Source: a virus
Direction: 5' to 3' (one strand)
Length of the DNA: 44,270 nucleotides
Virus record (IMG/VR): IMGVR_UViG_3300045988_131882
Shown here: positions 3,399 to 38,964 of the stretch, in pieces
Numbering within the stretch: position 1 is the first letter of the stretch
Layout of the letters: every line of letters starts with the position of its first letter
The notes under the pieces: generated by a model
The model's database searches: none
What the model saw: the letters and a program-made list of their open reading frames with translations, nothing else
Told to the model about the DNA's origin: nothing
Made by a program: the position numbers and the translations under genes

Positions 3399-3496
3399 AA
3401 AAGCCCCTGCCGGTGAGTCGAGCACCAACAAGGGCAAAGGGTGTCAGCTTTTAGCTGGCATCTTTTAGTATATAGCGATTTTGGGAGGGTGTCAAC

Positions 3497-4612
3497 ATGG
3501 CAAGAGCAAAAGCGCGGGCCGATGGGCTGATTGAACGAACAAGAACCTATGACGGCAAGCGAGTACACTTTTACGGCAAGACCGCGAAAGAGGTCTCCGC
3601 GAAAATTGACGAGTACGAACGCCAGCGGGAAGCGGTAAAAGAGAATGGCCCGCTGTTTGAGGATGTGGCCGGTGAATGGTGGGAGAACCATTCAAAAAAT
3701 ATCAAGACCGGCGCGGAAAGAGCCTACAATGGCAGCTACAAGGCCGCGCTGGAAGAGTTCAGCGGGTATCGCATGAAAGAGATAACGCCCGCGCTGGTGT
3801 CGCTGTGGGGAGAAAAATTCAAGGCCGCAGGGTATGCAGGGAAAACGGCAAGCAACGCCCGGAGCGTGTTGTCTTGTGTGTTCAAGTTTTGGTGCGTCCG
3901 GGATGGCGAAACATACAACCCGGTGACAATTACGGATTTGCCGCGAGGAATGAAAAAGGAGCGCCGGGAGCCGCCGACTGTGGAACAGCTGGAAACGGTC
4001 AAGGCACACCCGGAGGGGTTCGGGCTGTGTGCCTGGCTGTTCATGTATACGGGCTGTCGTTTGGGTGAGGTGCTGGCGCTGCAATGGCAGGATGTGGATT
4101 TTGAGAAAAACAGAATTAGCATAAGTAAAGAAGTGGCATGGGTGCATAATAAGCCGATTGTACAGATGCCCAAGACAGCAAGCGGCGTGCGTGCCGTGCC
4201 GCTGCTGTCGCCGCTGCGGGGCGTGTTGGAACCGCTGCGCGGGGCAGATAATGAGTATATACTTGGAGGGGAAAGGCCGCTGACAGGCACAGCATATCAG
4301 CGCAGATGGGCTTATTATTGCAAGGATGTGGGCATGGCACATTATACCGTACAGGTCCGGAAAAACAAGCACCGGGGCAAGGTGTACGAAACCGCGGTGA
4401 AGGTATGGAAGGCAGATGTCACGGCGCACCAGTTCCGGCACGAATACGCCAGCATGTTATATGCGGCGGGAATTGGAGAGCTGGAAGCGCAACGCCTTAT
4501 GGGGCATGCCGACATTACGACAACACGGCGAGTATATACACATATACGGGAACGCCAACTAGATACAGCAGGAGAGGCACTAGAAAAATTTATAAGCGAT
4601 AAAACGATATAA
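3497..4612 (+). CDS. int: Tyrosine recombinase (phage integrase)
   Basis: 371 aa. Catalytic signature: TGCRLGEVLAL (Arg), HQFRHEYAS (His-x-x-Arg), GHADITTTRRVYTHI (His, Tyr). It lies next to attP-like repeats. Confidence 0.92.
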   Translation: MARAKARADGLIERTRTYDGKRVHFYGKTAKEVSAKIDEYERQREAVKENGPLFEDVAGEWWENHSKNIKTGAERAYNGSYKAALEEFSGYRMKEITPALVSLWGEKFKAAGYAGKTASNARSVLSCVFKFWCVRDGETYNPVTITDLPRGMKKERREPPTVEQLETVKAHPEGFGLCAWLFMYTGCRLGEVLALQWQDVDFEKNRISISKEVAWVHNKPIVQMPKTASGVRAVPLLSPLRGVLEPLRGADNEYILGGERPLTGTAYQRRWAYYCKDVGMAHYTVQVRKNKHRGKVYETAVKVWKADVTAHQFRHEYASMLYAAGIGELEAQRLMGHADITTTRRVYTHIRERQLDTAGEALEKFISDKTI

Positions 4613-5181: not shown

Positions 5182-6828
5182 TCAGGCGGGGTTGTGGGAG
5201 GCAAGCTGCATAAGCGTTGCGGTGGTGGGGACCAGATGCCGCGCCATCGTGTCGTTGTAGCCGGTCTCGCCTTCGAAGCTGTCCACGACGGCGCGATCTG
5301 CCGTGCTCATGTCGTGATAGGTCTTTTTGCCGTAGGACGGAGGCAGCCAGCCTTTTTTCTGGGATGCGAAGATGTTGAAGGATTTCAGCACATCGGCGTT
5401 GGTGAACTCGATGTGACAGGTGCCTTTTTTGTAGAACGTGGCGGTGAAGTAGTGCAGCTTGATCTTGGTGGTCTGGCCGCTGGCCTCGGCAGCTTTGAGG
5501 GTGGCGCGGAGGTCATCGCCGTTGTAGGCGGTGCCGTTGGTGTCGAGGAAGTGAAGCGTTTTCTCGATGTTGGCGATCTCCTCCGCGATGTTGGTCGGGT
5601 AAAAATCGTCGGAGTAGACGCTGTAGGCATTGCAGCGGAAGATCATGTGCTTATCGACCTTGTAGGCGGAATTTGTGCACCAGCCGTTGTAATAGTGGAC
5701 ATTTTTGCTGTACTCGCTGTTGTAGTGAAGGTTGGTCCAATCATCAAAAAGGCGGATGATCTCGGATTCGATGTTGGAGACGATGTTGCGGGAGATTTCC
5801 TCGCGGATCGTGAGGATGTTGTAGGGGCTAAAATCGTAGTGGCAAAGGTCGTTGAGGCGCTTGTGGTAGTCGTTCTGCATCGTCTGCGTCATGGCGTCGC
5901 GGATTTGCGGAAGGTCGAAAAGCTGCTCCCAATAGATGGCGCGGAGATCGCACAGCGCGTCGTTGTAGCCCTTGTCGAGGGAGACACAGGGCGCGGGGGC
6001 GCTGCTGTCGCCCTGCTTTTTGGGTAGGGTGAAAAGCGAGGAAATACCGTCGTATTCTTCATACAGGCGGGCGAGACAGTCCGCGGCGGCGTTGTAGCGC
6101 TCGACTGCTGCCGTGAGGGGGTCATTGCTGACGAGGGCTACCAGGTCGGGCGCGGCCTGGTAGCGATGTGTCGTCTCGGCGTTGAGCTCTAAGCGGATGC
6201 GGGAGACAGGCGGCGCGGGCGGGATCGTGACGAAAACGAGCGCAACCTCCACCGCGGTTTTGCGGGTGGCGTGGGTGAAAGCGTCCTGCTTGTAGGTGAT
6301 CCGGGCGTTGTACTTGGCAAGCAGGGCGGCAAGCTCCTTGCGCTCGTTGGTGCAGGGGTTGCGGATCGTCTCGGCGTTGAGGATGCAGCGGACTTCCCCG
6401 CCCCGCTCCATGATGTGCAGGGCGTGCAGCAGGTGGCGCGCACCCTCGGAAAACGGCGGGTTCATGATGATCGCCTTGTAGTGGGCGCGGGGCGTGAAGG
6501 TGAGGAAATCGTCGTGGATGACGCGGAAGCCGTTTTCTTTGAGGGTGGCCCGGAGGGCGGCGGACTGCTCGATGCAGTCGAGCTGCAGGGCCTCCAAGCG
6601 GTACTTGTTCTTGGTTCTGTAGTAGTCGTCGCGGGTGCCGTCGCTGTTGTAGTGGATGTCGGCGGCCTTCTCGATGGCGCGGGCGAGGTCGCCGGAACCG
6701 GCGGACGGCTCCAGGATGGGGCCGCCTGCGTACTCGATGCTGTGGCCGTCGATCTTGAGACCGGCGAGCAGCTCCGCGGCGAGGGCCGGGGGCGTTGGGT
6801 AGTAGTCTTTGCTGTCGTTCGGAATCAT
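5182..6828 (-). CDS. SAM-dependent N6-adenine DNA methyltransferase (orphan, no cognate nuclease seen) with a large C-terminal extension
   Basis: Motif I is ILEPSAGSGDLA and motif IV is IIMNPPFSEG (NPPF). 548 aa. GGAGG lies upstream of the start. Confidence 0.85.
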   Translation of the reverse strand: MIPNDSKDYYPTPPALAAELLAGLKIDGHSIEYAGGPILEPSAGSGDLARAIEKAADIHYNSDGTRDDYYRTKNKYRLEALQLDCIEQSAALRATLKENGFRVIHDDFLTFTPRAHYKAIIMNPPFSEGARHLLHALHIMERGGEVRCILNAETIRNPCTNERKELAALLAKYNARITYKQDAFTHATRKTAVEVALVFVTIPPAPPVSRIRLELNAETTHRYQAAPDLVALVSNDPLTAAVERYNAAADCLARLYEEYDGISSLFTLPKKQGDSSAPAPCVSLDKGYNDALCDLRAIYWEQLFDLPQIRDAMTQTMQNDYHKRLNDLCHYDFSPYNILTIREEISRNIVSNIESEIIRLFDDWTNLHYNSEYSKNVHYYNGWCTNSAYKVDKHMIFRCNAYSVYSDDFYPTNIAEEIANIEKTLHFLDTNGTAYNGDDLRATLKAAEASGQTTKIKLHYFTATFYKKGTCHIEFTNADVLKSFNIFASQKKGWLPPSYGKKTYHDMSTADRAVVDSFEGETGYNDTMARHLVPTTATLMQLASHNPA

Positions 6829-7526: not shown

Positions 7527-8060
7527 TCAGGCGGGAATTGTTTCGCGGCTGCGGGTCTGGTAGCTGGTGCCGTTGTACTTCTGGTAGATTTCTTCATAGG
7601 ATGCGCGGCGGTTGCGGCGGCTGCTGTCGCCTGCCGGATGCCAGTAGTACTTGCAGCGGTTAGCAGACCAGCGGAAACCGAGCTTTTCGAGGGTGTGCAA
7701 CCACTTGTGGCTGCTGTCGGCCCAAATCCAGGAGCCGACGACGTCGAACCTCAAGCCCGGGCATTTGGCGAGTTCTTCGGCCATCTTGGCGGCCTCTGCA
7801 TCCTGTGCGGCCTTGGCGGCATCCTCTGCCGCTTTGGTCTGCTCGTACTGCTGGCGGCCTTGCTTAGCCTGCTCGCTGCAGAAGCGGGGCAGCGTGGGCT
7901 TGAGTTCGTCCCACTCGGCGTTGATTTCCTGCATGTCGGAGACGCTGCCGCCGTGGTCGGGGTGGTGCTTGGTGGCCAGGTCTCTGTACATTACTGTTCC
8001 TTCGGTGATGGTGCTGGGGCGGGGGTTGAACCATTTGTAGGGTTTATATGTGGTAGTCAT
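7527..8060 (-). CDS. J-domain-like (HPD motif) protein
   Basis: MTTTYKPYKWFNPRPSTITEGTVMYRDLATKHHPDHGGSVSDMQEINAEWDEL contains the HPD tripeptide and helix II/III-like context. AGGAGG lies upstream of the ATG at 8058-8060 rc (the track starts at 8117). Confidence 0.65.
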   Translation of the reverse strand: MTTTYKPYKWFNPRPSTITEGTVMYRDLATKHHPDHGGSVSDMQEINAEWDELKPTLPRFCSEQAKQGRQQYEQTKAAEDAAKAAQDAEAAKMAEELAKCPGLRFDVVGSWIWADSSHKWLHTLEKLGFRWSANRCKYYWHPAGDSSRRNRRASYEEIYQKYNGTSYQTRSRETIPA

Positions 8061-8114
8061 TTTGTAGGCCTCCTGTTTGGTGTGGGGTTGTTTGCTTTCT
8101 ATGTCTGTATTATA

Positions 8115-8233
8115 CATGCTAGCATGAACAATGTCAACATGCTATCATGAAGATTGGAGAAATACACAATAATGCTAGCATGAATCTGTGCAATTTGTAC
8201 ATGCTTGCATGATTCAGCGCTCTGTGCTATAAT
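8115..8233. promoter_or_regulatory. Four copies of a 12-bp palindromic operator plus a sigma-70-type promoter
   Basis: CATGCTAGCATG at 8115-8126, CATGCTATCATG at 8138-8149, AATGCTAGCATG at 8171-8182, CATGCTTGCATG at 8200-8211. TTGCAT (8205-8210), a 17-nt spacer and TATAAT (8228-8233) follow. The fourth operator overlaps the -35. Confidence 0.75.
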
Positions 8234-8585: not shown

Positions 8586-8616
8586 GCGTCCAGCTTTACG
8601 GCTGGGCGCTTTTTTT
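8586..8616 (+). terminator. Rho-independent terminator between the promoter and terS
   Basis: GCGTCCAGC (8586-8594), a 6-nt loop, GCTGGGCGC (8601-8609), then T7 (8610-8616). Confidence 0.8.
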
Positions 8617-8643
8617 GTGCGAAAAATCAGGGAGGGCGGCAAC

Positions 8644-9198
8644 ATGGCAGAAAAAAAGGCGGCGGAGGCCGTCCAGCAGATGAGCAAGGCAGAACGCGGA
8701 GCGATTCGAGCAAAAGAGCAAGCAGAGCGCGGGGAACTGATTAGCAAAACAGGCAGGCGAATGAATCCGGCAAGCATTGCCAACCTGCAGCCGAGAACGC
8801 TAGACCAGCAACCAGCAGAGCGAAAAAGAGAGATACAAAGCGCGGGAGCAAAAGCAAGCAACGAGCTACAAGCAAAGCGCCGTACTATTAGGGATATATA
8901 TAACGACCTGTTGAAGCAGCCTGACGACATCAGCAGCTTAGAAGATCAGGACCTAGCAGAGAGAGCCCAAAAGATGGCCCAACAGAGAGGCGAACCTCTG
9001 ACGGTATACGACAGCATCGCAATAGCGATGGCCGCCAAGGCGAAGGCAGGAGACGTCAAAGCGGCGGTATTTGTGCGGGATTCTGCGGGGGATAAACCTG
9101 CCGATGCCGTGGAAATCACAGCCGAGACGATGACCGACGCGGATAGAAAAATGTTGCAGAACATCCAGAAGAGAATGCAAAAGGACGATGCAACGTAA
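8644..9198 (+). CDS. terS: Putative terminase small subunit
   Basis: 184 aa. GGAGGG lies 7 nt upstream of the ATG at 8644. The N-terminal half is basic and helical; KAGDVKAAVFVRDSAGDKP is typical of small terminases I recall. It lies upstream of terL. The assignment rests on position and motif only. Confidence 0.5.
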   Translation: MAEKKAAEAVQQMSKAERGAIRAKEQAERGELISKTGRRMNPASIANLQPRTLDQQPAERKREIQSAGAKASNELQAKRRTIRDIYNDLLKQPDDISSLEDQDLAERAQKMAQQRGEPLTVYDSIAIAMAAKAKAGDVKAAVFVRDSAGDKPADAVEITAETMTDADRKMLQNIQKRMQKDDAT

Positions 9199-9339
9199 AA
9201 TGGATGTTCGCTAAATAAGTATTTAGCGAAATAGGCGGCTTTCCCGGCATGGGGACAGCTGGCAACGGATAGCAGAAAAGCGGAAAGCCTGCTGCTGGCT
9301 GCATCAAGGAAGGGGCGGGGGTCTATTTTTTTTTGTGGC

Positions 9340-9741
9340 AAATTCCGAGCCGGGAGGGCGGCAGGGTAGGGGGTGGGGGTATCCCCCCTATGAGGGCGGC
9401 CCGGGGGTGTACGAAGAGCGCAGGCCAGTACGAATATGTCCGTTCCCCCAGCGCATTCAAAAATAAAATTCACACCTTCGTGCCCGGCTATGGTACAAAT
9501 TTCCATGTAAAATACAAGAAAACGCGGGATTGTATCACAAGCAGGAAACAAGAGTACATATCCCCCCTATGAGGGGACTATATCCTGGATAGCAAAGGTT
9601 CCCTGGAAAAATAAAATTTTGAAATTTTGAGTTTTATGGTGTGGGAGATAGTATTTTTTATTGTTTATGGGATGAGGGCCGTCCGCTTCAAGACCCAGCG
9701 GCCAAATACAAAGCGTTCTGCGAAAAGCAGGGCGCTTTTTT
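9340..9741 (+). ncRNA. Candidate structured non-coding RNA(s) ending at an intrinsic terminator; boundaries uncertain
   Basis: No credible ORF. A 17-nt motif is duplicated (TATCCCCCCTATGAGGG at 9380-9396 and 9559-9575), as is a 12-nt motif (AAAAATAAAATT at 9459-9470 and 9607-9618). AGCCGGG (9348-9354) is complementary to CCCGGCT (9483-9489). There are G-run/C-run hairpins and a terminator at 9713-9741. Confidence 0.35.
9713..9741 (+). terminator. Rho-independent terminator not preceded by any gene
   Basis: GCGTTCTGC (9713-9721), loop GAAAA, GCAGGGCGC (9727-9735), then T6 (9736-9741). Confidence 0.8.
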
Positions 9742-9926
9742 ATATGCTGCATAGCTGACCATTTTGGTGACGTTACCAAGATGGTATGAGCGCTGCGTTC
9801 CGCAAGCAACGGCGCGGCAAAGGTGCAAGACCTATGTGCAGTACCAACGCCGAGGATACAGGTAACAAGGCAGCATGGCCGGACGTGGCAAGCGCGTTCC
9901 CCATTAGGCGACACCTGTTAGGCGAC

Positions 9927-9967
9927 CCCCGCAAGCCTACTAACAGTGCGCAACCTGCGGGGTTTTT
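9927..9967 (+). terminator. Terminator-like hairpin with a large loop and U tail, directly upstream of the tRNA-like element
   Basis: CCCCGCA (9927-9933) pairs with TGCGGGG (9956-9962), followed by TTTTT (9963-9967). The 22-nt loop takes part in an alternative helix (CACCTGTTAG 9912-9921 with CTAACAGTG 9940-9948). Confidence 0.5.
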
Positions 9968-9971
9968 ATAT

Positions 9972-10029
9972 GCCCTTGTAGCTCAATGGCAAGAGCCTTG
10001 GTGTGCCGGTTCAAGTCCGGCTAAGGGCA
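9972..10029 (+). ncRNA. tRNA-shaped element with acceptor stem, D arm and T arm but no anticodon arm (58 nt)
   Basis: GCCCTTG-TA-GCTC-AATGGCAA-GAGC-cttggtgt-GCCGG-TTCAAGT-CCGGC-TAAGGGC-A. The acceptor stem is 7 bp (one G-U). The D loop has GG and the T loop has TTCAAGT. Only 8 nt stand where about 22 nt (anticodon arm plus variable loop) should be. Confidence 0.6.
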
Positions 10030-10382
10030 AAGGCGGGGTCGCTCCCCTCCGTAAAGCCGGACGGAATACAGACCGATAGCACTGGGGCGCATCGGAGAGC
10101 AACGATGGCAAGCCGCTCAGGAGCGCGGCGCGATGGCAGGTCGCAACGGGACTTCGAGAGCCTGAAAAAATCTGCCCGGCATCTGCTTGTGCGGACTCCG
10201 TTACTGACGCAGTTACGCATCGCCGGAACCCATAATATTAAAGCAGAGAACGCGAATCCGCACGCGGGGATAAATGCAGCGGATGAAAAAAGCGCTGCAG
10301 ACTTGCTATCTGCAACGGGTGAGACCGGCACAGCATAAACCGGTAGGGCGGGAAAGGGGAATTTGCAGAAGAAGGTGATAGG

Positions 10383-11873
10383 TTGACACTGGAAGAAGCG
10401 CGGGAATTGGAGCGCGAGGCGTGTAGAAAAGACCCGGTGTATTTTTGTGAAACCTATTGCCATATTGAGGACAAGGACGCGGCAGAGCTGATACAGCCGT
10501 TCACATTATGGGAAGGGCAGAGGAAGGCCATCCGCGTGTTTGCCGCGAACCGGCTTGTGTGCGTGCTGAAAGCGCGACAGCTGGGCTTTACATGGCTTGC
10601 GCTGGTTGAGGTGGCAAGGCTGGTTGCCTTGAACACAGGCCGCACTGCGATTGGCCTAAGCCGGTCGGAGGACGAGGCAAAGGAGCTTGTGCGCCGCCTG
10701 GCGGTGATACTGCGGTATATGCCGGAGTTTATCCGCGAGGTAGACACACCGGGCGGCAGTATCCAGGGGTGGACAGGGCCGGTGTTCTACAAAAGCACGA
10801 TGCAGGTAGTTGTGATGTGGCCGGATGGGCCGGAAAGTATGTTCAAAGCGTTCCCATCCAGCCCGGCGGCAGGCCGTTCGTTTACTGCTGACTTGATCGT
10901 GATAGATGAATGGGCGTTCCAGCAGTACGCAGAGGAGATTTGGCAGGCGGCATACCCGGTTATCAACCGACCGTTTGGCGGGCGGGTCATTGGCTTGTCT
11001 ACTATCAAGCTGGGAACGCTGTTTGAGGAAATTTACACAAACCCCGGCAACGGCTTTACCAAGCTGTTTTTGCCATGGTCAACTGACCCGCGCCGTAGTG
11101 AGAAGTGGTACGCACAGACAGTCGCTGCGCTGGGCGAAGATAAAACGATGCAGGAGTACCCTGCGACAGAGGAAGAAGCGCTCTCCGCACCAGGAGGGCG
11201 CTTTTTTAGTGAGCTTGATAAAGATACCCACTTGGTCGATGCACCGCCAACAGGGCCGCTTAGACGCTATGTGGCGATTGACTACGGCCTTGATATGCTG
11301 GCGGCTATCTGGATCGCCGTTGACCCGAACAACCATGCAACGGTGTACCGGGTGGACGGCGGGCCAAACAAGACGATAGGCGAGGCAGCAGACCTGATTT
11401 TGCGAGATTCCGAGGGCGAGGAAATTGATATGTATCTTGCACCGCCTGATTTGTGGAACCGCAGCCAGGAGAGCGGCAAGAGCCGTGCACAGCTGTTCAG
11501 CGAAGCGCATCTGCCGCTGGTGCAAAGTTCCCGCGATTTCCCTGCCGGGTGTGCGGCCATGAAACAATGGCTGCGCAAGGACGAGAAAACAGGGAAGGGG
11601 TATCTGACGTTCTACAAGCCGGGCGAGTTGTGGACGTGCCTGACGAAAATACAGAAGGATGATAAAAACCCTGATGTGTATGCGAAGAACCCGCACGGAT
11701 TGACGCATTTCCCGGATGCGTTACGCTATTTTTGCGTTTGGTGGACAAGCCCGGCGAAAAAGCCGGTGAATATTAAAAAGCGGCATTGGACGGCAGATAT
11801 GTACGAGGACTACAAGAACGCAAGCCCGAGTGACCGCAAAATGCTGATTGAGAAATGGGGGAGCCCTGCATGA
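10383..11873 (+). CDS. terL: Terminase large subunit
   Basis: 496 aa. ATPase motifs: VLKARQLGFTWLAL (Walker A-like) and DLIVIDEWAF (Walker B). A C-terminal nuclease-type region is present. TTG start with GAAGGTGA upstream. Confidence 0.88.
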   Translation: MTLEEARELEREACRKDPVYFCETYCHIEDKDAAELIQPFTLWEGQRKAIRVFAANRLVCVLKARQLGFTWLALVEVARLVALNTGRTAIGLSRSEDEAKELVRRLAVILRYMPEFIREVDTPGGSIQGWTGPVFYKSTMQVVVMWPDGPESMFKAFPSSPAAGRSFTADLIVIDEWAFQQYAEEIWQAAYPVINRPFGGRVIGLSTIKLGTLFEEIYTNPGNGFTKLFLPWSTDPRRSEKWYAQTVAALGEDKTMQEYPATEEEALSAPGGRFFSELDKDTHLVDAPPTGPLRRYVAIDYGLDMLAAIWIAVDPNNHATVYRVDGGPNKTIGEAADLILRDSEGEEIDMYLAPPDLWNRSQESGKSRAQLFSEAHLPLVQSSRDFPAGCAAMKQWLRKDEKTGKGYLTFYKPGELWTCLTKIQKDDKNPDVYAKNPHGLTHFPDALRYFCVWWTSPAKKPVNIKKRHWTADMYEDYKNASPSDRKMLIEKWGSPA

Positions 11874-12049
11874 GATGCCAGACCTGCGGCATAGAGTGCC
11901 GCACCGATTCCGAGCACGAAGTGCTGAAATTCATTTGCCGGAACAAGCAGTGCCCTGATTTTGGGCACGTAAGGGGGGAGAAAGCCCCCGACGTTGCGGT
12001 GATGCGGGTAAATTACCCTGTGGGAGCACAAGGAGAAGCGGGGAAATAG
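11870..12049 (+). CDS. Small zinc-ribbon protein
   Basis: The ATG overlaps the terL stop (ATGA). MRCQTCGIECRTDSEHEVLKFICRNKQCPDFGHV has a CxxC...CxxxxC pattern. GGGGGAG lies 6 nt upstream. Confidence 0.6.
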   Translation: MRCQTCGIECRTDSEHEVLKFICRNKQCPDFGHVRGEKAPDVAVMRVNYPVGAQGEAGK

Positions 12050-12080
12050 CGACACACTGCGGGCGTAGCCCCACAGGGGA

Positions 12081-12119
12081 AGGCAGGAGCGGGGCGTCGA
12101 GGACGCCGCCCCCTACAAC
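12081..12119 (+). repeat. 39-nt hairpin repeat, copy 1 (38/39 identical to 30244-30282)
   Basis: AGGCAgGAGCGGGGCGTCGAGGACGCCGCCCCCTACAAC. It contains the hairpin GGGGCGTC-gag-GACGCC(g)CCCC and lies 12 nt upstream of a terminator. Confidence 0.9.
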
Positions 12120-12131
12120 TACGATAGAAGA

Positions 12132-12163
12132 AGCGCTTACCAGAGATGGTAGGCGCTTTTTTT
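12132..12163 (+). terminator. Rho-independent terminator
   Basis: AGCGCTTACC-agagat-GGTAGGCGCT followed by T7 (12157-12163). Confidence 0.8.
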
Positions 12164-12205
12164 ATACAAATTTTTAGCCGGCGGGCGTTGTACGCGGAGG
12201 AACCT

Positions 12206-13027
12206 ATGGACGAGTTTGAAAACGGCGTGACCGCTGGCGTAGCCGACCAGATCGAGAACACCCCGGAAGAAAACGTGGAAACTGTTGAAAACGTGGAAAC
12301 AGATGTGGAAAGTACGGAAACTGCCCCCGCGCAGGAACCGGAAATCCCCAACAATGTATGGGCCATTGCCCGCCAGCGCAGCGAGCGAGAGGCACAGCAG
12401 CGCGTAGACCGACAGTTTGCACAGCGCTTTGCCGGGTACAAGAACCCCGAGACCGGCGCGGCTATCCATACGATGCAGGATTACTTTGACGCGATGGATG
12501 CCCAGAACCGCATTGCCAGACAGAAAGCCATTGAACAGGCTACGGCCAACCAGACGGCAGAACAGCGTGCCGCATTGCAGCGCATCATTGACAACGACCC
12601 AGAGAAAGCACAGCTGAAAGCCGAGATGGAGGAGCTGAAAGCCGCAAGGGTCAACGATGAGGCGCAGGCGGCGTTCAACGCTGATTTTGCCGAACTGCAA
12701 AAGCTGGAACCGGGCCTGAAAAGTGTTGCTGACCTTGCCAACATGGAGAATTTTGGCGAGATCGTGAACCTGGTGCAGAACAATGGCCTGGATATGGTGA
12801 CGGCCTACAAGGCGGTCAACTATGGCAAGGCCGTACAGAGCGGCACAGCGGCAGGGCGACAAGCAGCTATCAACGCGGCACGCGGCAAAGGGCATCTGGC
12901 GTCCCACGGAGGAGCCAATATGCCGGGCAAGGAAAAGACCATGAGCAGCGGGATGCTTGCGAAAGCACGTGAGTATTTCCCGGACAAGAGCGAAGAGGAG
13001 CTACAGAAGCTCTACAACTCAATTTGA
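12206..13027 (+). CDS. Putative scaffolding protein
   Basis: 273 aa, acidic N-terminus and long helical Ala/Gln/Glu-rich sequence (MDEFENGVTAGVADQIENTPEENVETVENVETDVEST...). It lies immediately upstream of the capsid gene. GGAGGA lies upstream of the ATG at 12206. Confidence 0.65.
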   Translation: MDEFENGVTAGVADQIENTPEENVETVENVETDVESTETAPAQEPEIPNNVWAIARQRSEREAQQRVDRQFAQRFAGYKNPETGAAIHTMQDYFDAMDAQNRIARQKAIEQATANQTAEQRAALQRIIDNDPEKAQLKAEMEELKAARVNDEAQAAFNADFAELQKLEPGLKSVADLANMENFGEIVNLVQNNGLDMVTAYKAVNYGKAVQSGTAAGRQAAINAARGKGHLASHGGANMPGKEKTMSSGMLAKAREYFPDKSEEELQKLYNSI

Positions 13028-13050: not shown

Positions 13051-14052
13051 ATGGCAGTTATTTTTAGTAAGGCAAGCGGCCTTGCCAATGATTTTTGGAA
13101 TGAGTGGGCTGACCTGCTCACCATGAAAATGAAGGACACCGACAACGAGAAGAACAACGATGACGAGCTTGTGAAAGCGCTGTTCAATGTCAAGAAGTCC
13201 AAGCGTTTCGGCGAGAAGATCGCAGGTATGTCTACCTTCTCCAACTTTGATCTGGTCGATGAGGGCGCGTCCAGCCCGCTGGATGATTTCGGCGAGGTGG
13301 AACCCAAGCTTATCCAGCATTCGGAGTTCAAGAAAGCGTTCCGCATCACCAAGACGATGATCGAGGACAACCAGTTTGATATGGCCGCTGCCCGCGCGGC
13401 AGCCTATGTGCGTGCCTACAAGCGCAGCCGTGCTGTGTTTGCTTCCAGCGCACTGACCAGCGCCGCCGCGACCTTTACTTACGGCGCAAAGACCGGGCTG
13501 GATTCCACCACTGCGGACGGCAAGGCCCTGTTTGCCAAAGACCATACCGGCAATACCGGCGTTGCCGCACAGAGCAATGTGTTCACCAATGCGCTGGGCA
13601 CCGATGACGCGATGCTGAACAAGCTGGCGAATGTCGGCTTCAACTTCATGAATGCCTCCGGCAACCACATGGGCTATGTGTTCGACACCATCATCCTGCC
13701 TGCCAACCGCCCCGATATGATCGTGCTGGCAAAGAAGATTGCCAACAGTGACCAGCAGGTCGGCAGCAACTTCAACGATGTGAACGTCAACAAGGGTATG
13801 TGGAAGCTGATCGTTGACCATCATTGGCAGGCAGCGGAGGAAAGCAACCCCTATATCATCATGAGCAGCCAGGCCAACAAAGACCTGCTGGGCAACGTGT
13901 TCTATGACCGTACCGCGATGGAGACCTTCCAGAATGTGGACACGCTGACGCAGGATCTGATCACTTCCTGCCGTGGCCGTTTCAGCGCCGGTTTCGGAGA
14001 TTGGCGGCACGTTATTTTGGGCGGCGCTGCTGCTGGTAGCACGCTGACCTAA
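13051..14052 (+). CDS. Major capsid protein
   Basis: 333 aa. Strong AAGGAG ribbon. It follows the scaffold gene. Its composition and length are typical of HK97-fold capsid proteins. No database check was made. Confidence 0.7.
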   Translation: MAVIFSKASGLANDFWNEWADLLTMKMKDTDNEKNNDDELVKALFNVKKSKRFGEKIAGMSTFSNFDLVDEGASSPLDDFGEVEPKLIQHSEFKKAFRITKTMIEDNQFDMAAARAAAYVRAYKRSRAVFASSALTSAAATFTYGAKTGLDSTTADGKALFAKDHTGNTGVAAQSNVFTNALGTDDAMLNKLANVGFNFMNASGNHMGYVFDTIILPANRPDMIVLAKKIANSDQQVGSNFNDVNVNKGMWKLIVDHHWQAAEESNPYIIMSSQANKDLLGNVFYDRTAMETFQNVDTLTQDLITSCRGRFSAGFGDWRHVILGGAAAGSTLT

Positions 14053-14322: not shown

Positions 14323-16209
14323 ATGAAGAAAGACGATAAGCAGACAAAAGACCTTGAAAAATGGCAGGGCAAGCTATCCAGCGCGAAATCTGCGTACAGC
14401 GGCACGCTGGATAAGATGCGCAAGCGCGAGGCCATGTACTACGGCAGCCACGAGATACAGGGGGCCAAGAAGGATGCCACCAATGTGCGCAATATCATCT
14501 ATGAGCTGATTGAGAGCCAGGTGGATTCGACCTACCCGCTACCGAAGGTGACGGCCATCCACCGGGAGGACGAGGACAAGGCACGCAAGCTGGAAAGCCT
14601 TTTGCGCAACCAGGCACGCCGGATGCACTTTACCGAACTGAACGACCGCAGCGAGCGCACCGTACCGGTGCAGGGGGCTGATTTTTTCCATGTGGAATGG
14701 AACCCGGCGGCTGGGTATCACTGCACACTGGGCGACGTGGAAATCGAGTTGCGCCACCCGCGGCAGGTCATCCCCCAGCCGGGCGTGTACAAGCTGGACG
14801 ACATGGATTATGTGTTTGTGCAGATATCCAAGAGCAAAGAAGCCCTGGAAGCGCGGTACGGCATCAAGCTGGACACCGACACCGAAGATGCGCCGGATGC
14901 CAGAGGTGGAGACGATGGCAGCACCCACACAGGCGTTGTGACCCAGAACATTGTGTACTACAAGCATGATAAGGGCACAGTGGGGATGTTTAGCTGGGTA
15001 GGCAGCCAAGTGTTGGAAGATTTCCCCGACTATTACGCACGAACGGCGGAGGTCTGCACAAAATGCGGACGCCGCCGGGTGGGGGATGTGTGTGTCTGCG
15101 GGAATAAGAAATTCAAGGAACAGCCCGTGCAGACGCTTACCCTGACCCAGGATGTGACGATGAGCAGCGGGGAGGTTCTGCCCGCCCAGGTACAGGGCGA
15201 GGATGTGCCCATCATAAACCCGGATGGCAGCGTACAGCTGGATAATGACTCCGGGGAAGTTATCCTGATGCCCGGCGAGATGCAGGCCAATGAGATACCC
15301 GCCTACAAGCCGCACGGTTTCCCCCTGATTGAGCGGGTGAACATTGCTGCATCGGATATGTTTTTGGGCGTATCGGATGTGGACATTGTGGCCGACCAAC
15401 AGCAAGCCATCAACAAATACGGCACGAAGATACAGGAAAAGCTGCTGAAAGGCGGCAGCTGGGTCATTCTGCCGGAGGGTGTGCAGGCAGAACTGAACGA
15501 CGACGAGCTAAAAATCCTGCGCATAGAGAACCCGAGCCAGCGCAACATGATCGATGTCCTCAACGTGCAGCCCAATGTGCAGAACGACCAGAATATGCTG
15601 GAATATAACTATAACTGGGCAAAATCGACGCTGGGCATCACCGATGCGTTCCAGGGCAAGTACGATAGTTCTGCGACATCCGGCAGTGCAAAGCAGTTCA
15701 GCGCGAACCAAAGCGCGGGCCGTTTGCAATCCAAGCGGGAGATGAAGAACAACGCCTACGCCAAGTTGTACCGCAAGATGTTTGAATTTTTGCTGGCGTA
15801 TGCGGATGAGCCGTATCCCATGACGGATACCGACGTGGACGGCGAACAGCAGTATGGGCACTTTGACCGCATGGAGTTTTTGAAGCGGGACGCAGCCGGG
15901 GAATTGTACTGGAACGATGAATTTATCATTGAGGTAGACCCGGCAAGCAACCTTGCCAGCAACCGTGAACGGCTGTGGGATATGGCAAAGGTGGATTTCC
16001 AGGCGGGCGCGTTTGGCCCCATCGGCGATCTGAACACTTCAAGAACCTACTGGACATGGAACAAGAGCACCGGCTACCCTTACGCGGCAACGGTGCTGGA
16101 AGATATCAACAAGCAGCTGGAAGCACAGCGGCAGATGGAACAGGGGGTGAATGCTGTTGACCTGGAAGGAAATCAAACTGGCGACCTTACAAAAAATGTT
16201 CAGTTCTGA
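14323..16209 (+). CDS. Putative portal protein
   Basis: 628 aa. The size, the N-terminal pattern (KREAMYYGSHEI...NIIYELIESQVDSTYPLPKV) and the head-module position fit a portal. It contains a Cys4 insertion, CTKCGRRRVGDVCVCG. Confidence 0.6.
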   Translation: MKKDDKQTKDLEKWQGKLSSAKSAYSGTLDKMRKREAMYYGSHEIQGAKKDATNVRNIIYELIESQVDSTYPLPKVTAIHREDEDKARKLESLLRNQARRMHFTELNDRSERTVPVQGADFFHVEWNPAAGYHCTLGDVEIELRHPRQVIPQPGVYKLDDMDYVFVQISKSKEALEARYGIKLDTDTEDAPDARGGDDGSTHTGVVTQNIVYYKHDKGTVGMFSWVGSQVLEDFPDYYARTAEVCTKCGRRRVGDVCVCGNKKFKEQPVQTLTLTQDVTMSSGEVLPAQVQGEDVPIINPDGSVQLDNDSGEVILMPGEMQANEIPAYKPHGFPLIERVNIAASDMFLGVSDVDIVADQQQAINKYGTKIQEKLLKGGSWVILPEGVQAELNDDELKILRIENPSQRNMIDVLNVQPNVQNDQNMLEYNYNWAKSTLGITDAFQGKYDSSATSGSAKQFSANQSAGRLQSKREMKNNAYAKLYRKMFEFLLAYADEPYPMTDTDVDGEQQYGHFDRMEFLKRDAAGELYWNDEFIIEVDPASNLASNRERLWDMAKVDFQAGAFGPIGDLNTSRTYWTWNKSTGYPYAATVLEDINKQLEAQRQMEQGVNAVDLEGNQTGDLTKNVQF

Positions 16210-19960: not shown

Positions 19961-20394
19961 CGGACAACCCTTATAAATATCCTTATGTGCCCGTTGGCGG
20001 CATCATCGAGTGGGACGGAACCGGGCTGATCGGCGCGCCGGATTTGAGCACGCCGGAAAAGGTTGCGGCGGTGTACGGATATGGAACCTGGGAACGGTAC
20101 GGCGTTGACCGAGTAACGGTAGGTGCTGGCGGAGATTATGAGGCAGGCAGTGTTGGCGGTGAGAAGGAACATACGCTGACTGAGAATGAAACTGCAAGAC
20201 ACCGCCATGAAGGACTTGAATGGGTAACTGGTGAAAATGTCGGGCTGAATGATGGAACAAGTGCGTCTATCCGACTCGCATTTACTTCCGTCGGCTGTAC
20301 AAATGGGTTTAGGACTGCTTTTGCTGGTGGCTCTCAGCCTCACAACAATATGCAGCCCTATATCGCCACATACCGTTACCGCCGCATCGCGTGA
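19957..20394 (+). CDS. Tail-collar-domain fibre protein
   Basis: [20 protein letters not shown] and [22 protein letters not shown] match the phage tail collar motif pattern. ATGA overlap with the upstream gene. Confidence 0.75.
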
Positions 20395-20909: not shown

Positions 20910-22166
20910 ATGAGATTATCTAACGGCGAGGTGCTGCTGCACTGGCCACTTGACCTGCACGTTTTAACGCAGGGCTGGTACTACAACGATGGCAGTTTGC
21001 ATCAGGGCGCCGATTGGCGCACGCAGAACGGCACGGATTACAAGCGCCCGATCTACGCTGCCGAGGAAGGCACGGTTGACCAAACACAGAACTGGGACGG
21101 CCACACAAAGACCGGAATGCAGAGCTATGGCAACATGGTGAGAATCAAACACGCGCCTTACAAGGGAAAAACTTTACAGACGCGATACGCCCACCTTAGC
21201 AGCTATTGCGTCAAGGTCGGACAGAAGGTCAAAGAGGGAGAACTCATCGGCTTTTCTGGCGTTAGTGGGAACGTGTTCGGTGCGCACCTGCATTTTGAAG
21301 TTATCCTGAACGGCAAGCGCACAAACCCTCTGGTATGGCTGGACAGCGACTTCACCACGGCGAGCAGTCAGGTGTTTACCTACCGCGCCGGTGAACACGC
21401 AGTGGAAAAACCTGCGGACGCTGCACAGTCCAGCGGTGAGGAAGTGCTGATTGATGTGTCCCATCACCAGGGCGCTATTGACTGGGCGAAAGTTCCCTAC
21501 CGCGCCATTGTTCGCATCGGCTACCGTGGTTACGGCAGCGGCAAGCTTATGAAGGACGAGCAGTTCGACGCCAACCTTGCAGGGGCGAAAGCGAACGGAA
21601 AGCTGTTCGGCTTTTATTTCTTCTCGCAGGCGGTCACGGTGGACGAAGCCCGCGAGGAAGCCGATTTCTGCGCAAGCCTTGCCCCGACCGGCTACCCGCT
21701 GTTTTTCGATGCCGAATGGAGCCGCGAGGAACACGATGGCCGCGCTGACAACCTGACGAAAGACCAGCGCACGGCAATCGCAATGGCATTTTGCGAGAAA
21801 GCCAAAGCGCATGGATTCACGGCTGGCATTTACACCTTCACAGCGTTTGCAAGCACGAACATCGACTACGCCTACCTGTGTGAAGATTACATCGGATGGT
21901 TGGCCGACACGCGCACGAACTACAACAAAACACTGCCGCGCTACATCCACCAATACGGACAGGGCTATGTTGCGGGCATTGCCAAGGTGGTTGATTTGAA
22001 TCATCTGGTCAAGGCCCTGCCCGCAGTGGACAAGCCTGCAAACAAGCTGCAAGTGATTACCATTGGGCCGGTGAGCCAGGGGGACGCAGATGCGGTTTAT
22101 CTGCTGTGCAAACAGCGCGGCCTGACGGATGCAGGGCTGTATAAATCTGAATGGGCGGAGGAGTGA
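20910..22166 (+). CDS. Bifunctional endolysin: M23 peptidase plus GH25 muramidase
   Basis: M23 motifs: HQGADW (HxxxD) and GAHLHFEV (HxH). GH25 motifs: IDVSHHQGAIDWAKV, GFYFFS, FFDAEW. AAGGAG lies upstream. Confidence 0.88.
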   Translation: MRLSNGEVLLHWPLDLHVLTQGWYYNDGSLHQGADWRTQNGTDYKRPIYAAEEGTVDQTQNWDGHTKTGMQSYGNMVRIKHAPYKGKTLQTRYAHLSSYCVKVGQKVKEGELIGFSGVSGNVFGAHLHFEVILNGKRTNPLVWLDSDFTTASSQVFTYRAGEHAVEKPADAAQSSGEEVLIDVSHHQGAIDWAKVPYRAIVRIGYRGYGSGKLMKDEQFDANLAGAKANGKLFGFYFFSQAVTVDEAREEADFCASLAPTGYPLFFDAEWSREEHDGRADNLTKDQRTAIAMAFCEKAKAHGFTAGIYTFTAFASTNIDYAYLCEDYIGWLADTRTNYNKTLPRYIHQYGQGYVAGIAKVVDLNHLVKALPAVDKPANKLQVITIGPVSQGDADAVYLLCKQRGLTDAGLYKSEWAEE

Positions 22167-33922: not shown

Positions 33923-34043
33923 TTTTGCTCCTTTCTTTCAGTTTCATGCAGCGCGGCAGCGTGCAAATATCGCCATTCTTCCACTGGCATGTCGCGCAAA
34001 GATGTTTGCGGGCGTATTCATCAATTAGTTGCTGTTTTGTCAT
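33891..34043 (-). CDS. Small Cys-rich protein
   Basis: MTKQQLIDEYARKHLCATCQWKNGDICTLPRCMKLKERSKNG... GGAGGAA lies upstream of the ATG at 34041-34043 rc (the track starts at 34094). Confidence 0.5.
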   Translation of the reverse strand: MTKQQLIDEYARKHLCATCQWKNGDICTLPRCMKLKERSKNGTRRIKHCE

Positions 34044-34683
34044 GGGGTTCCTCCGGCTTCTTCCCAATCTCTTTACAAAAGTCGAGATAGTCATTCACGG
34101 CGTTGTGAAACTCTCTTTCGATTTCCTCTGCTTTGAAAGAATGGAAGTTTATCATGTCATGAATTTTATCAAGTTTACCATGCCAGAGTTTGTCATCATC
34201 ATCGTACTCAATAGTTGCCGTATAGCCGCGATAACTAAGCTTTAGAGACTCCGTATCCTCCGGGGGGTTGGGGAGTGGCATCCAGTGGGTGACGGCGTCC
34301 AGAGCGTAATAATCGCCCACATTGATAAATTCCTCTGTGTTCGGAAGTCTGAACGCCATAGACATAGAATCAAACGCTGCTTCGTATGCAAGAACCATTT
34401 CTTTTGCTTGTGGAAGTCTGTCTTTAACGCTTACCCATTTGCCGCAAACGTCTTTATATGGTTTAACCTGATATACAGCAGCAAGAGCATCAAGAACCCG
34501 CGCGCCAACTGGCGTATTTGAGTTAAAAGGCAAATGCTCACTAATGCACCTCTGTCTGATTGCTTTTAACGCATCGCCGCGCAAAATCAAATCACTGTTG
34601 TCATATTCTCCATTTATCATTTTATCTTTTGCCTTTTGGATAGCTTCAGCAATCTTATCTCCATCAAGTACAATGCTTTTCAT
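34021..34683 (-). CDS. Fusion protein: DUF551-like central region plus a HicB-antitoxin-like C-terminal domain
   Basis: GKWVSVKDRLPQAKEMVL...THWMPLPNPPE is the DUF551 pattern. LSYRGYTATIEYDDDDKLWHGKLDKIHDMINFHSFKAEEIEREFHNAVNDYLDFCKEIGKKPEEP is the HicB-like pattern. Confidence 0.65.
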   Translation of the reverse strand: MKSIVLDGDKIAEAIQKAKDKMINGEYDNSDLILRGDALKAIRQRCISEHLPFNSNTPVGARVLDALAAVYQVKPYKDVCGKWVSVKDRLPQAKEMVLAYEAAFDSMSMAFRLPNTEEFINVGDYYALDAVTHWMPLPNPPEDTESLKLSYRGYTATIEYDDDDKLWHGKLDKIHDMINFHSFKAEEIEREFHNAVNDYLDFCKEIGKKPEEPHDKTATN

Positions 34684-37644: not shown

Positions 37645-38047
37645 CGTCCAGCATCTCCTCTATGAAAATTTCGGTGCGGGGGTTGGCTTTGTCGTACAGT
37701 ACGCGGGAGCCGTCTGTTGCTGCTACGATGTTGCTGTTGTCATCTTTCAAAATCCTGGTATCAACCAGAATATCCATGATGGCGCTTTCAAGGTTTGTTT
37801 TATCTACCCTGTGCCGTGTAGGCATGTAATACAAGCACTTGACATTGTAGCGGCCTTCCAGCGGATTTTTGGGCGCTGGTTTTAAATACATCTTGGCAGT
37901 TCTTGCGTACTTCAAGTAGGCTGCACTTGGCAGAACTTTTGCGTACTTGCCCTTATGGCATACCGGGCAGTGTGCGCCAACGTATCCGATGCGGGGGCTG
38001 TTCTTTTTGGTGATGGGCTTGCCGTAGATTATGTATTTTTGGATCAT
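37628..38047 (-). CDS. rusA: RusA-family Holliday junction resolvase
   Basis: MIQKYIIYGKPITKKNS...RHRVDKTNLESAIMDILVDTRILKDDNSNIV is the RusA pattern (D-x-x-N...D...DD). GGAGGA lies upstream of the ATG at 38045-38047 rc. Confidence 0.75.
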   Translation of the reverse strand: MIQKYIIYGKPITKKNSPRIGYVGAHCPVCHKGKYAKVLPSAAYLKYARTAKMYLKPAPKNPLEGRYNVKCLYYMPTRHRVDKTNLESAIMDILVDTRILKDDNSNIVAATDGSRVLYDKANPRTEIFIEEMLDDEQPV

Positions 38048-38964
38048 ATAAAGTCCTCCACGCTCATCTGTCCTGGCAGTACATCTTCCTCCATCCACCA
38101 ACGGAATACATCTTGCCCTGTACCGCCCATCATCCAGCTTCCGTCCAGCTTTCCGCGCGCCCTGCGCTCATCAAGCATCCTGTCAAAGGCCTGTATGTAG
38201 AGCTTCTCGTAAGCAGGCCAGCGTCGGAACTCCGCATATCGTTTACTTTTCTTTGCGAGTGGGCATCCGATACACCCCACACGATTCAGCCCACATTCAT
38301 ACAACGGATTCACAGGCACCTTTGCATCCTGCAAAAAGCTCCATACTTGATTGTCCGTCCAGTCCACAACGGGGTTTACTACGCGTTTTGCGGCCACCTT
38401 GCACCCTTCAAAGATTTTGCTCGGCTCCTGTTCTTCGCCTTTCAAAACGATTCTGTTATCTTTGTTCCGGGTGTATGCTTCAAAAACGCCTCTGTCGCGC
38501 TTTCTTCGGCTACTTTCCGCCCACCGCACGCCAGTCGTGATGAACCGCCCGTTTCCGCCCTGTTCTTTCAGCACACCGCAGCAGTACCTCACGATTCGTG
38601 TCGGCGGCATCAGTTTTTGCGGGATTAGGTCCCACATACTTGTGCGCTTGCCCTTATAAACGGGGTAGTTAATGGTGCATTTCACGCCCAGATTTTCAAG
38701 TCTGGCAAATTCCTGCCGTACAAACCGCACTGTCTCCGGCGCATCCGCAGTTGTGTGGTTGTGCTGCACCTCAAACGGAATGCCCCCCCTCAGTGCAAGC
38801 TCTACGCACACGCTGCTGTCCTTGCCGCCGCTGGTCGTTACCACAAGCGGCGTTCCGTAATACTTCAGTGCCATGTCGCTTGCCGCTTTCAACCGCCCGA
38901 TGGCGATCTTCTCCGGGTCTCCGCTTGTCGGTAGGGTCACAAGGCCCCAATCTTCTTTGCTCAC
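38044..38964 (-). CDS. PAPS-reductase / DndC-like PP-loop ATPase family protein
   Basis: The PP-loop is VVTTSGGKDSSV. The C-terminal Cys cluster is CGLNRVGCIGCP. 306 aa. Confidence 0.8.
   Translation of the reverse strand: MSKEDWGLVTLPTSGDPEKIAIGRLKAASDMALKYYGTPLVVTTSGGKDSSVCVELALRGGIPFEVQHNHTTADAPETVRFVRQEFARLENLGVKCTINYPVYKGKRTSMWDLIPQKLMPPTRIVRYCCGVLKEQGGNGRFITTGVRWAESSRRKRDRGVFEAYTRNKDNRIVLKGEEQEPSKIFEGCKVAAKRVVNPVVDWTDNQVWSFLQDAKVPVNPLYECGLNRVGCIGCPLAKKSKRYAEFRRWPAYEKLYIQAFDRMLDERRARGKLDGSWMMGGTGQDVFRWWMEEDVLPGQMSVEDFI

Follow-up and report, generated by a model that had tools for sequence, protein, structure and literature searches.

The stretch of DNA analysed here (the window; 44,270 nucleotides, IMG/VR record IMGVR_UViG_3300045988_131882) is the genome, of ~44 kb, of a temperate, tailed gut phage. 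In the present study we describe a 58-nt element of this genome which has the shape of a transfer RNA (tRNA) without the anticodon arm, hereafter called the armless element, and which lies upstream of the gene for the large terminase subunit (terL). The region from ~9600 to 10380, between the last small plus-strand open reading frames (ORFs) and terL, was found to be non-coding. It carries a first tRNA-like RNA (#1), the armless element, a conserved leader with two hairpins and a D12-methyl RNA motif, in this order (Table 1). The ORFs at 9786-10079, 10003-10338 and 10011-10463 (-) were taken as non-coding, since RNAs scored by Rfam and structure-preserving variation occupy the same stretch. 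No sigma-70-like promoter was obtained in the promoter scan of 9300-10500, and BLAST of 9600-10400 gave no match among the GenBank phages.

Table 1. Position of the tRNA-shaped RNAs, their parts and the neighbouring genes in the window.
Feature	Position	Strand	Evidence or remark
Integrase	3497-4612		
Terminator-like hairpin, 12-bp stem, then T run UUUUUUAUAU	9710-9745 (hairpin 9710-9738)	+	Terminator scan; directly 5' of tRNA-like #1
tRNA-like RNA #1, 101 nt including encoded CCA	9746-9846	+	Four-way-junction fold; upstream cassette of the array
Spacer	9847-9926		
Upstream hairpin CCCCGCA...UGCGGGG, then UUUUU AUAU (UUUUUAUAU)	9927-9971 (hairpin 9927-9962)	+	Fold
Anticodon-arm-less tRNA-shaped RNA gene, 58 nt	9972-10029	+	Rfam tRNA 43.1 bits; own covariance model R1 90.8 bits
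Acceptor stem, 7 bp including G7-U66	9972-9978 with 10022-10028		
U8 A9	9979-9980		
D arm, GG in loop	9981-9996		
Linker CUUGGUGU, 8 nt (position 26, 2-nt stub, 44-48)	9997-10004		
T arm, loop UUCAAGU	10005-10021		
Discriminator A	10029		
First leader hairpin GGGG-UCGCU-CCCC	10035-10047	+	Starts 5 nt after discriminator
Second leader hairpin UCCG-UAAAGC-CGGA	10048-10061	+	
Remaining conserved non-coding leader, ~230 nt	10062-10292	+	Alignment of family loci
D12-methyl RNA motif RF02950	10293-10356	+	85.2 bits (gathering score 57); 26 nt 5' of terL
terL	10383-11873	+	Pfam Terminase_6N, E = 4.9e-05; first recognisable late gene 3' of the leader
Capsid gene	13051-14052		
Portal gene	14323-16209		
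Replication genes	39-43 kb	-	

The armless element reads GCCCUUG-UA-GCUC-AAUGGCAA-GAGC-CUUGGUGU-GCCGG-UUCAAGU-CCGGC-UAAGGGC-A. An earlier note, made from the sequence of the window alone, had proposed at this place a 58-nt tRNA-shaped element with a 7-bp acceptor stem, a D arm with GG in the loop, a T arm and a discriminator A, in which position 26, the anticodon arm and the variable region are reduced to 8 nt, and this description was confirmed in all of its parts. The Rfam tRNA model RF00005 (gathering score 29) matches positions 9972-10029 (+) end to end, from model position 1 to 71, with 43.1 bits (E = 3.7e-07); the acceptor, D and T arms are aligned and the 18 model positions of the anticodon stem-loop are represented by 4 nt. 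In tRNA numbering the linker is composed of C26, a 2-nt stub (UU) and G44 G45 U46 G47 U48, the 17-nt anticodon stem-loop (27-43) being reduced to 2 nt. A by-eye comparison with a full-length tRNA-Val having the same D arm has shown that exactly positions 27-43 are missing. The nucleotides of the tRNA core are all kept, namely U8, A14, A15:U48, G18 G19, and U54 U55 C56 with A58. Moreover, the element has U at -1, G1-C72 and non-CCA letters after the discriminator, CCA not being encoded at its 3' side. ARAGORN, which the earlier note had recommended as a check, called no tRNA anywhere in the window.

In the fold prediction the acceptor and T stems were formed at a probability of at least 0.79-1.0. 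The nearest-neighbour model mildly favours another pairing of the D region (-24.8 vs -23.5 kcal/mol; z = -2.15 against shuffles), and this alternative pairing is lost in the linker variants CAUGG, CUGAGG and CGUAGG. Rfam matches of group II intron and plastid-ycf2 models over the element were far under their own gathering scores and were rejected. An integration site (attP) was also considered and set aside, because both tRNA halves are present, and the G-U pairs and compensatory changes indicate selection on an RNA of the plus strand. The element lies outside the D12-methyl model RF02950, that motif being a separate one 264 nt downstream. As judged from its sequence, the element is a phage-encoded tRNA-shaped RNA, with its core under selection, which is unable to decode.

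The conservation of the armless form in related phages was examined by searching IMG/VR with a family pattern in which the D arm and the T loop are joined by only 6-16 nt. The same architecture was found in at least 90 contigs, with ~23 sequence variants. In 17 distinct variants, 99.3% of the stem cells are paired, as compared to 24-55% after a shift of the partners by 1-3 columns. Changes on both sides were observed in three pairs, i.e., acceptor pair 2-71 (C2-G71 to A-U) and the T-stem pairs 50-64 and 51-63, and several stem pairs alternate between G-U and G-C or A-U; such switches are informative only for an RNA of this strand. The 2-3-nt stub is free to vary (UU, AU, UGA, UCA, GUA), C26 and GG(U/A)GU are fixed, and the discriminator is A, G or C. 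Copies of the family are placed in at least three unrelated flank contexts. At the loci L150, L155 and L156 the element stands 3' of a terminator and 5' of a putative scaffold-type gene (a by-eye reading, with no Pfam match), and L081 and L164 provide other contexts. Only one full-length tRNA with the same D arm was found in IMG/VR, an unrelated tRNA-Val of a 101-kb phage, vs at least 90 armless contigs. With no other full-length tRNA of this D arm in IMG/VR, there is no apparent living parent from which the armless copies could be recent deletions. A strict pattern run on species-representative genomes gave a single match, in a 43-kb contig of an Oscillospiraceae metagenome-assembled genome, which is probably itself a phage; this match is a weak hint of Oscillospiraceae as the tentative host clade.

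The armless form was found to be a wide class in phages. A relaxed pattern, with the D loop and T loop loosened and the short linker kept, matched at least 120 contigs from many different metagenomes. Among the matches listed, to which the counts on stems, linkers, the 15:48 pair and encoded CCA given below also refer, there were 84 unique sequences outside the family of the window. At least six of the seven acceptor pairs are formed in 69 of these 84 (chance expectation 1.3%), and the three unfixed T-stem pairs are all formed in 79. The 66 well-paired elements have 57 different acceptor stems, and every one of them has GG in the D loop. The linker lengths of the class have a maximum at 8-9 nt. 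When linkers of 12-19 nt were sought as a control, the matches listed had a second mode at 18-19 nt, corresponding to a 3-bp stem with a 7-nt loop, and lengths of 12-16 nt formed a trough; the armless form is thus a discrete state and not a point on a deletion smear.

The strongest structural evidence comes from the tertiary Levitt pair 15:48, of which both positions (48 being the last base of the linker) were left free by the search pattern. In 65 families this pair was A:U in 21, G:C in 41 and another combination in 3 (Fisher p = 8e-16), and a repeat with a different D stem (GUUC/GAAC) gave A:U in 6, G:C in 13 and another combination in 1. The RNAs of the class are evidently selected, on this covariation, to fold into the L-shaped tRNA core without its anticodon limb. 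The earlier note had argued that the element cannot decode and keeps the elbow and acceptor surfaces; this structural reading was right, and the covariation across families has strengthened it. The 3' ends have a further peculiarity, as only 6 of 65 armless elements (9%) encode CCA, vs 24 of 31 full-length tRNAs (77%) obtained with the same pattern at the same loci (p = 3e-11). The discriminator also varies across the class. Rarely encoded CCA and a variable discriminator together suggest that the 3' end is not selected as an amino-acid acceptor.

Armless elements are present in cultured phages too. In Lactobacillus phage LBR48 (GU967410 ~20008-20065, L392) the element lies in an unannotated spacer, 82 nt after a 'putative transcription regulator' and 5' of the next annotated genes. 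In Lactobacillus phage Lb (NC_047983 ~21375-21432, minus strand, L393) it is likewise unannotated, 74 nt after the gene of a DUF722 protein, in both phages the last gene of regulator type, with a DUF2829 gene, the small terminase subunit gene (terS) and terL downstream. In general the armless elements often stand just 5' of terS, terL, portal or capsid genes, and the genes found 3' of the element in other families include three types of terS and those for portal, capsid protein, ParB-like, RecT and a DUF4417 protein. These downstream genes agree with a place at the start of the packaging module. The context of one further locus, L215, gave no match in BLAST against the GenBank phages.

Some further observations were made on the class. 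Glutamicibacter phage BIM BV-113 (L394 2428-2499) has a 72-nt tRNA between a helix-turn-helix (HTH) protein gene and terL, and at that place the related contig L178 has an armless element. L225, a 180-kb phage contig, has four short (55-62 nt) tRNA-like elements at 350-410, 2052-2113, 3556-3610 and 10701-10761 (-), and also a HEARO RNA at 7959-8172 (-). In the 71-kb contig L233 an armless element is part of a large tRNA array, along with a GOLLD RNA and a permuted transfer-messenger RNA (12031-12431, 749-1101). A hairpin GCCGG-GAAAGA-CCGGC, or a near variant of it, occurs directly 5' of tRNA-shaped elements in several unrelated phage families (L085, L096, L097, L103, L113, L163, L167, L193, L195, L249 and L264), and its recurrence suggests a shared junction or recognition module.

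The place of the element in the genome was analysed in relatives selected through terL, a selection which is unbiased toward tRNAs; 102 relatives were confirmed in IMG/VR and the best 80 loci were kept. The junction with the leader (...GCUGGGUCGCUCCCACCGG...) is shared among these relatives and the occupants of the slot before it vary. In all 32 leader-bearing loci the slot is filled. Only 2-6 nt separate the tRNA-shaped element from the first leader hairpin, except in two of the 32 loci, which have an insert of 15-55 nt between the slot element and the leader. The occupant is an armless element in 13 loci, an odd 84-86-nt tRNA (ARAGORN 'His-ATG') in 7, a 69-nt tRNA-like RNA with a 3-4-bp anticodon stem and encoded CCA in 5, tRNA-Thr in 3, tRNA-Trp in 2 and a T-arm-containing element of ~60 nt in the remaining 2. 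With standard decoding tRNAs in only 5 of the 32 loci, the slot apparently requires the shape of a tRNA and not a given anticodon. The earlier note had regarded a full-length tRNA at this position in related phages, together with a truncated form unique to this genome, as the sign of simple decay or of an assembly deletion. Relatives do carry full-length tRNA-Trp and tRNA-Thr at the exact position; the truncated form is not unique to this genome, and hence the objection does not apply.

The hairpins on both sides, which had also been pointed out before, are real. The stem of the upstream hairpin is formed by 9927-9933 with 9956-9962 and is followed by U5 and AUAU, the module ending 1 nt before the element; the simple terminator scan missed it, its loop being longer than 8 nt. 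The same module is present 5' of the armless element of L001 and 5' of the tRNA-Trp of L005 and L018, and the junction 5' of tRNA-like #1 is of the same type as that 5' of the armless element. On the downstream side, the GGGG-UCGCU-CCCC hairpin is kept with compensatory changes, and in the two leader hairpins together 5 of 11 pairs are changed on both sides (RNAalifold, 12 loci). The fold of the leader at 10030-10150 gave z = +0.5. The D12-methyl motif was found in the relatives L002, L007, L010, L013, L018 and L023 as well, and its signature is usually 290-410 nt downstream of the armless element. Here and in the relatives this motif stands directly 5' of terL and not of a methyltransferase. 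In the L035-L045 group (L037 3855-3900), a tRNA-Gln abuts a D12-methyl-like second half, in place of the first hairpin of the motif. From the comparison of these loci, the armless element is one interchangeable cassette of a small tRNA-shaped array, which forms part of the leader of the late operon, that of the packaging and structural genes.

RNase P, RNase Z and the CCA-adding enzyme recognise the acceptor stem, the T arm, the elbow of D and T arms and U at -1, all of which the element keeps. The RNase Z of Firmicutes acts on precursors without CCA and cuts them precisely after the discriminator. In our favoured reading, to which a probability of about 0.4 may be given, the element is the phage counterpart of the t-elements of plant mitochondria, which RNase P and RNase Z would excise at the start of the late operon. 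A late precursor RNA would be read through the tRNA-shaped array, and host RNase P would cut at G9972, the module at 9927-9971 being the predicted RNase P leader; the upstream RNA would then keep a 3' hairpin with a U-rich tail. RNase Z would cut after A10029 because no CCA is encoded. An RNA of ~58 nt would be released and then given CCA, and the late messenger RNA (mRNA) would begin at a fixed nucleotide, with a stable hairpin 5 nt further on. Among the roles listed in the earlier note, that of a processing signal is best supported by the context (slot always filled, contents interchangeable, CCA depleted); the transcription, both cleavages and any effect on the late mRNA are inferred.

Plant mitochondrial t-elements, including one without anticodon arm, act as signals for RNase P and RNase Z at mRNA ends, and they gain non-encoded C and A nucleotides after cleavage (PMC1920247, PMC5499578). 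Like them, the phage elements are tRNA-derived, non-decoding and putatively placed between transcription units, with an acceptor stem, a T arm and the GGTTCRANYCC T loop, i.e., the acceptor and T-arm features for both enzymes; the t-element of Arabidopsis nad6 is also without the anticodon arm (PMC1920247, PMC5499578). For both, a role in setting 5' and 3' ends of mRNAs by means of tRNA-processing enzymes has been proposed. As for the boundary position itself, the slot element abuts the late leader in each of the 32 loci, often just 5' of packaging genes, and the enrichments in the flanks are weak or non-specific. The two groups are not alike in every respect. The t-elements are organellar, few and visibly degenerate, with irregular D arms. 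In the phages the class is large, its D arm is intact and its tertiary pair covaries; its members occupy phage tRNA slots, and their cleavage is predicted.

A number of points weigh against a processing role. RNase P and RNase Z need little beyond an acceptor/T minihelix, so that processing alone does not obviously explain the strictness of the D arm and of the 15:48 pair; the 16 nt of the D arm are identical across families with unrelated flanks. Hairpins flank the armless elements no more often than ordinary full-length phage tRNAs, due to which flanking hairpins were rejected as a mark of the armless form. Start codons close by on the downstream side show a mild enrichment only (34% vs 24%), and U at -1 is present in 41% of armless elements vs 64% of canonical tRNAs. 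In large phages the armless elements are found inside ordinary tRNA arrays (L233 and L225, the latter with several per genome), where a dedicated cutting signal seems unnecessary. Further, variable cargo in near-identical phages is also expected of accessory or arms-race genes, and the 32 loci are contigs, many of them closely related, and not independent lineages or events.

In view of these points, a mimic of the tRNA core acting in trans is a serious alternative, though of rather low probability. Here the excised, CCA-tailed RNA of 58-61 nt would serve as a decoy, sponge or cofactor for a protein that recognises acceptor end and elbow and ignores the anticodon. The candidate targets would be host toxins or immune effectors modifying or cutting tRNA acceptor ends, or tRNA-processing or tRNA-modifying enzymes, and the cargo would be accessory in the manner of anti-defence genes. 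The full tertiary core is strictly kept beyond the minimal needs of the processing enzymes, the slot cargo differs among phages whose terL is 93-98% identical, as is seen at accessory loci, and the occurrence inside tRNA arrays, with several copies in L225, is in agreement with such a role. The lack of a conserved partner gene nearby would fit a host target. On the other hand, the mimic has no known target, and the anticodon nucleases, which are the best-known tRNA-directed defences, are not decoyable by an element without anticodon loop. Most genomes have a single copy, placed in the leader; the slot is occupied at every one of the 32 loci, which would be surprising for optional cargo; and nothing on such RNAs was found in the literature searched. 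The broader form of this idea is that of a widespread undescribed class of phage non-coding RNAs acting in trans as acceptor/elbow mimics, for example as decoys for tRNA-directed toxins or immune effectors of the host or by inhibiting or hijacking enzymes that process or modify tRNAs, with the excision from the leader being biogenesis only; it is considered unlikely.

A riboregulator acting in cis is improbable. The tRNA elbow, remaining attached, would dock on or nucleate the downstream leader and D12-methyl motif and thereby control the late genes. It is favoured by the constant structured leader to which the element always adjoins, by the usual distance of the D12-methyl signature, and by the tRNA-Gln of the L035-L045 group standing at the place of the first hairpin. 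However, the homologues L150, L155, L156, L081 and L171 and the other families have unrelated flanks with no such leader, and the same slot is filled by canonical tRNAs with encoded CCA, whose excision would be expected. Covariation of the element with the leader was not seen, although no systematic search for it was made.

The earlier note had also allowed for a decayed tRNA gene; a functionless pseudogene or an assembly deletion is, however, largely contradicted by the comparative data and is very improbable. The element does stand in a slot where relatives have real tRNAs, ARAGORN rejects it, and intermediates with a shortened anticodon arm occur in viral contigs. Neutral decay would not be expected to leave the same architecture in at least 90 contigs from independent assemblies, compensatory substitutions keeping both variable stems paired, a sharp linker peak at 8-9 nt with a trough beyond it, a covarying 15:48 pair, several unrelated flank contexts and a broad class, with no full-length counterpart of this D arm in IMG/VR besides the one unrelated tRNA-Val. 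Lastly, a non-decoding aminoacyl carrier, charged by an anticodon-blind synthetase and donating to a non-ribosomal transferase, is very unlikely: the acceptor stem, discriminator and elbow are intact, some synthetases can charge minihelices and G3:U70 is present in 6 of 66 class members (among the matches listed), but the discriminator and first acceptor pairs vary freely in family and class, CCA is rarely encoded and no transferase gene is associated.

The processing reading follows the logic of known tRNA-like modules. In the MALAT1 and MEN-beta modules (Rfam mascRNA-menRNA), a tRNA-like structure lies inside a longer transcript. The cut of RNase P on its 5' side gives the upstream RNA a mature 3' end, shielded by a neighbouring structure, and RNase Z then cuts the small RNA, to which CCA is added. 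The phage proposal has the same tRNA-like cut within a longer transcript, whereas mascRNA is eukaryotic and nuclear, keeps a reduced anticodon arm, and has a triple helix in the place of the hairpin and U run of the phage. The vtRNAs (TMER) of murine gammaherpesvirus 68 are not aminoacylated; the RNase Z cut at their tRNA-like 3' end frees the downstream hairpins, and CCA is added. They are likewise virus-encoded and tRNA-like, with hairpins directly 3'. They differ in having a full cloverleaf with anticodon arm and polymerase III promoters, and their downstream hairpins are precursors of microRNAs. The canonical phage tRNAs (RF00005) occupy the same genomic slots, being interchangeable with the element in this family, and share the acceptor/D/T architecture and the tertiary pairs; the armless element differs from them by the missing anticodon stem-loop, the depletion of encoded CCA (9% vs 77%) and the lack of an ARAGORN call.

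Partial tRNA folds are known from other systems also. The tRNA-like domain of the bacterial Y RNA YrlA mimics the acceptor/D/T core, but it is a module of a Ro-binding RNA and has a different topology (PMC4201824). That tRNA enzymes can work on substrates lacking arms is evident from the armless mitochondrial tRNAs; in these the D and/or T arms are lost, the anticodon arm is kept and decoding continues, which is the opposite truncation (PMC7609411). In a full-text literature search no published description of a phage tRNA-like RNA without the anticodon arm was found, the collection being incomplete and an earlier description possible. A keyword look-up in papers on non-canonical tRNAs, covering the passages so retrieved, gave none on such forms. 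Processing signals and mimics with a tRNA-like shape are already known kinds, and the phage class lacking exactly the anticodon arm is apparently new.

In most discussions the tRNA genes of phages figure only as decoders or as spares against anticodon nucleases. The class described here is discrete and strongly conserved, and it keeps all of the tRNA except the part that reads codons. Since tRNA finders miss it and its members pass the Rfam tRNA threshold, so that an automated Rfam annotation would call them plain 'tRNA', the class has been overlooked or mis-annotated, the cultured Lactobacillus phages included. If the elements are processing signals, phage late operons would regularly use a punctuation of mRNAs by tRNAs such as mitochondria have, and the elements could be of use as small, transferable modules for cutting RNA. 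If they act in trans, they would represent a new type of host manipulation by RNA. The class lends itself to testing in either case, since the phages Lb and LBR48 are available as isolates and the RNA ends are predicted to the nucleotide.

The phage group has other odd tRNA-like RNAs. The flanking non-coding RNA mentioned in the earlier note was found, on the upstream side, to contain the second such RNA of the window, #1, with its encoded CCA. The 7-bp acceptor stem of #1 (GCUGCAU with GUGCAGU) is followed by discriminator A and CCA; the place of the D arm is taken by a long variable hairpin, the 'anticodon' arm is odd and consists of two parts, and the T-like arm GGUGCAAGACC has the loop UGCAAGA. 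Its four-way-junction fold gave z = -4.35, with 0 of 200 shuffles as good. About 60 distinct homologues have compensatory changes in the acceptor (GCUACAC/GUGUAGU, GCUAUAC/GUAUAGC), and #1 stands where some relatives have tRNA-Trp(CCA). It is recognised by neither the Rfam tRNA model nor ARAGORN.

The 69-nt tRNA-like RNA (L002 3255-3323, L003 3540-3608, L006 3265-3333, L007 3399-3467, L022 3262-3330) has a conserved CUCGAG in its loop and scores 47-49 bits with the Rfam tRNA model at the two loci scanned, with no ARAGORN call. It belongs to a wider 'short-arm' class of viral contigs, with linkers of 18-19 nt. The 84-86-nt element, which ARAGORN calls tRNA-His(ATG), has an extra internal hairpin (L010 2938-3021, L013 3504-3589, L024, L029, L030 and L032), and the ~60-nt element has a normal T arm, a short acceptor and a minimal middle hairpin (L016 ~3400-3460, L056 ~3570-3630).

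With regard to the neighbouring genes, no small terminase subunit was recognised between the leader of the window and terL (stretch considered, 8600-10383); in the relative L105 a gp3-type terS lies 234 nt 3' of the armless element. Self-cleaving ribozyme motifs were found in relatives, 2-4 kb 5' of terL, and none in the window itself; they are a twister-sister ribozyme in L037 (1601-1680, -; 76.8 bits), a pistol ribozyme in L033 (1424-1490, -; 67.6 bits) and RAGATH-5 in L023 (159-211, -; 50.9 bits). The accessory genes of the window, all on the minus strand, encode a 548-aa DNA methyltransferase of DUF4942 type (5182-6828), a protein with a HicB-like antitoxin domain (34021-34683) and a PAPS-reductase-like protein (38044-38964).

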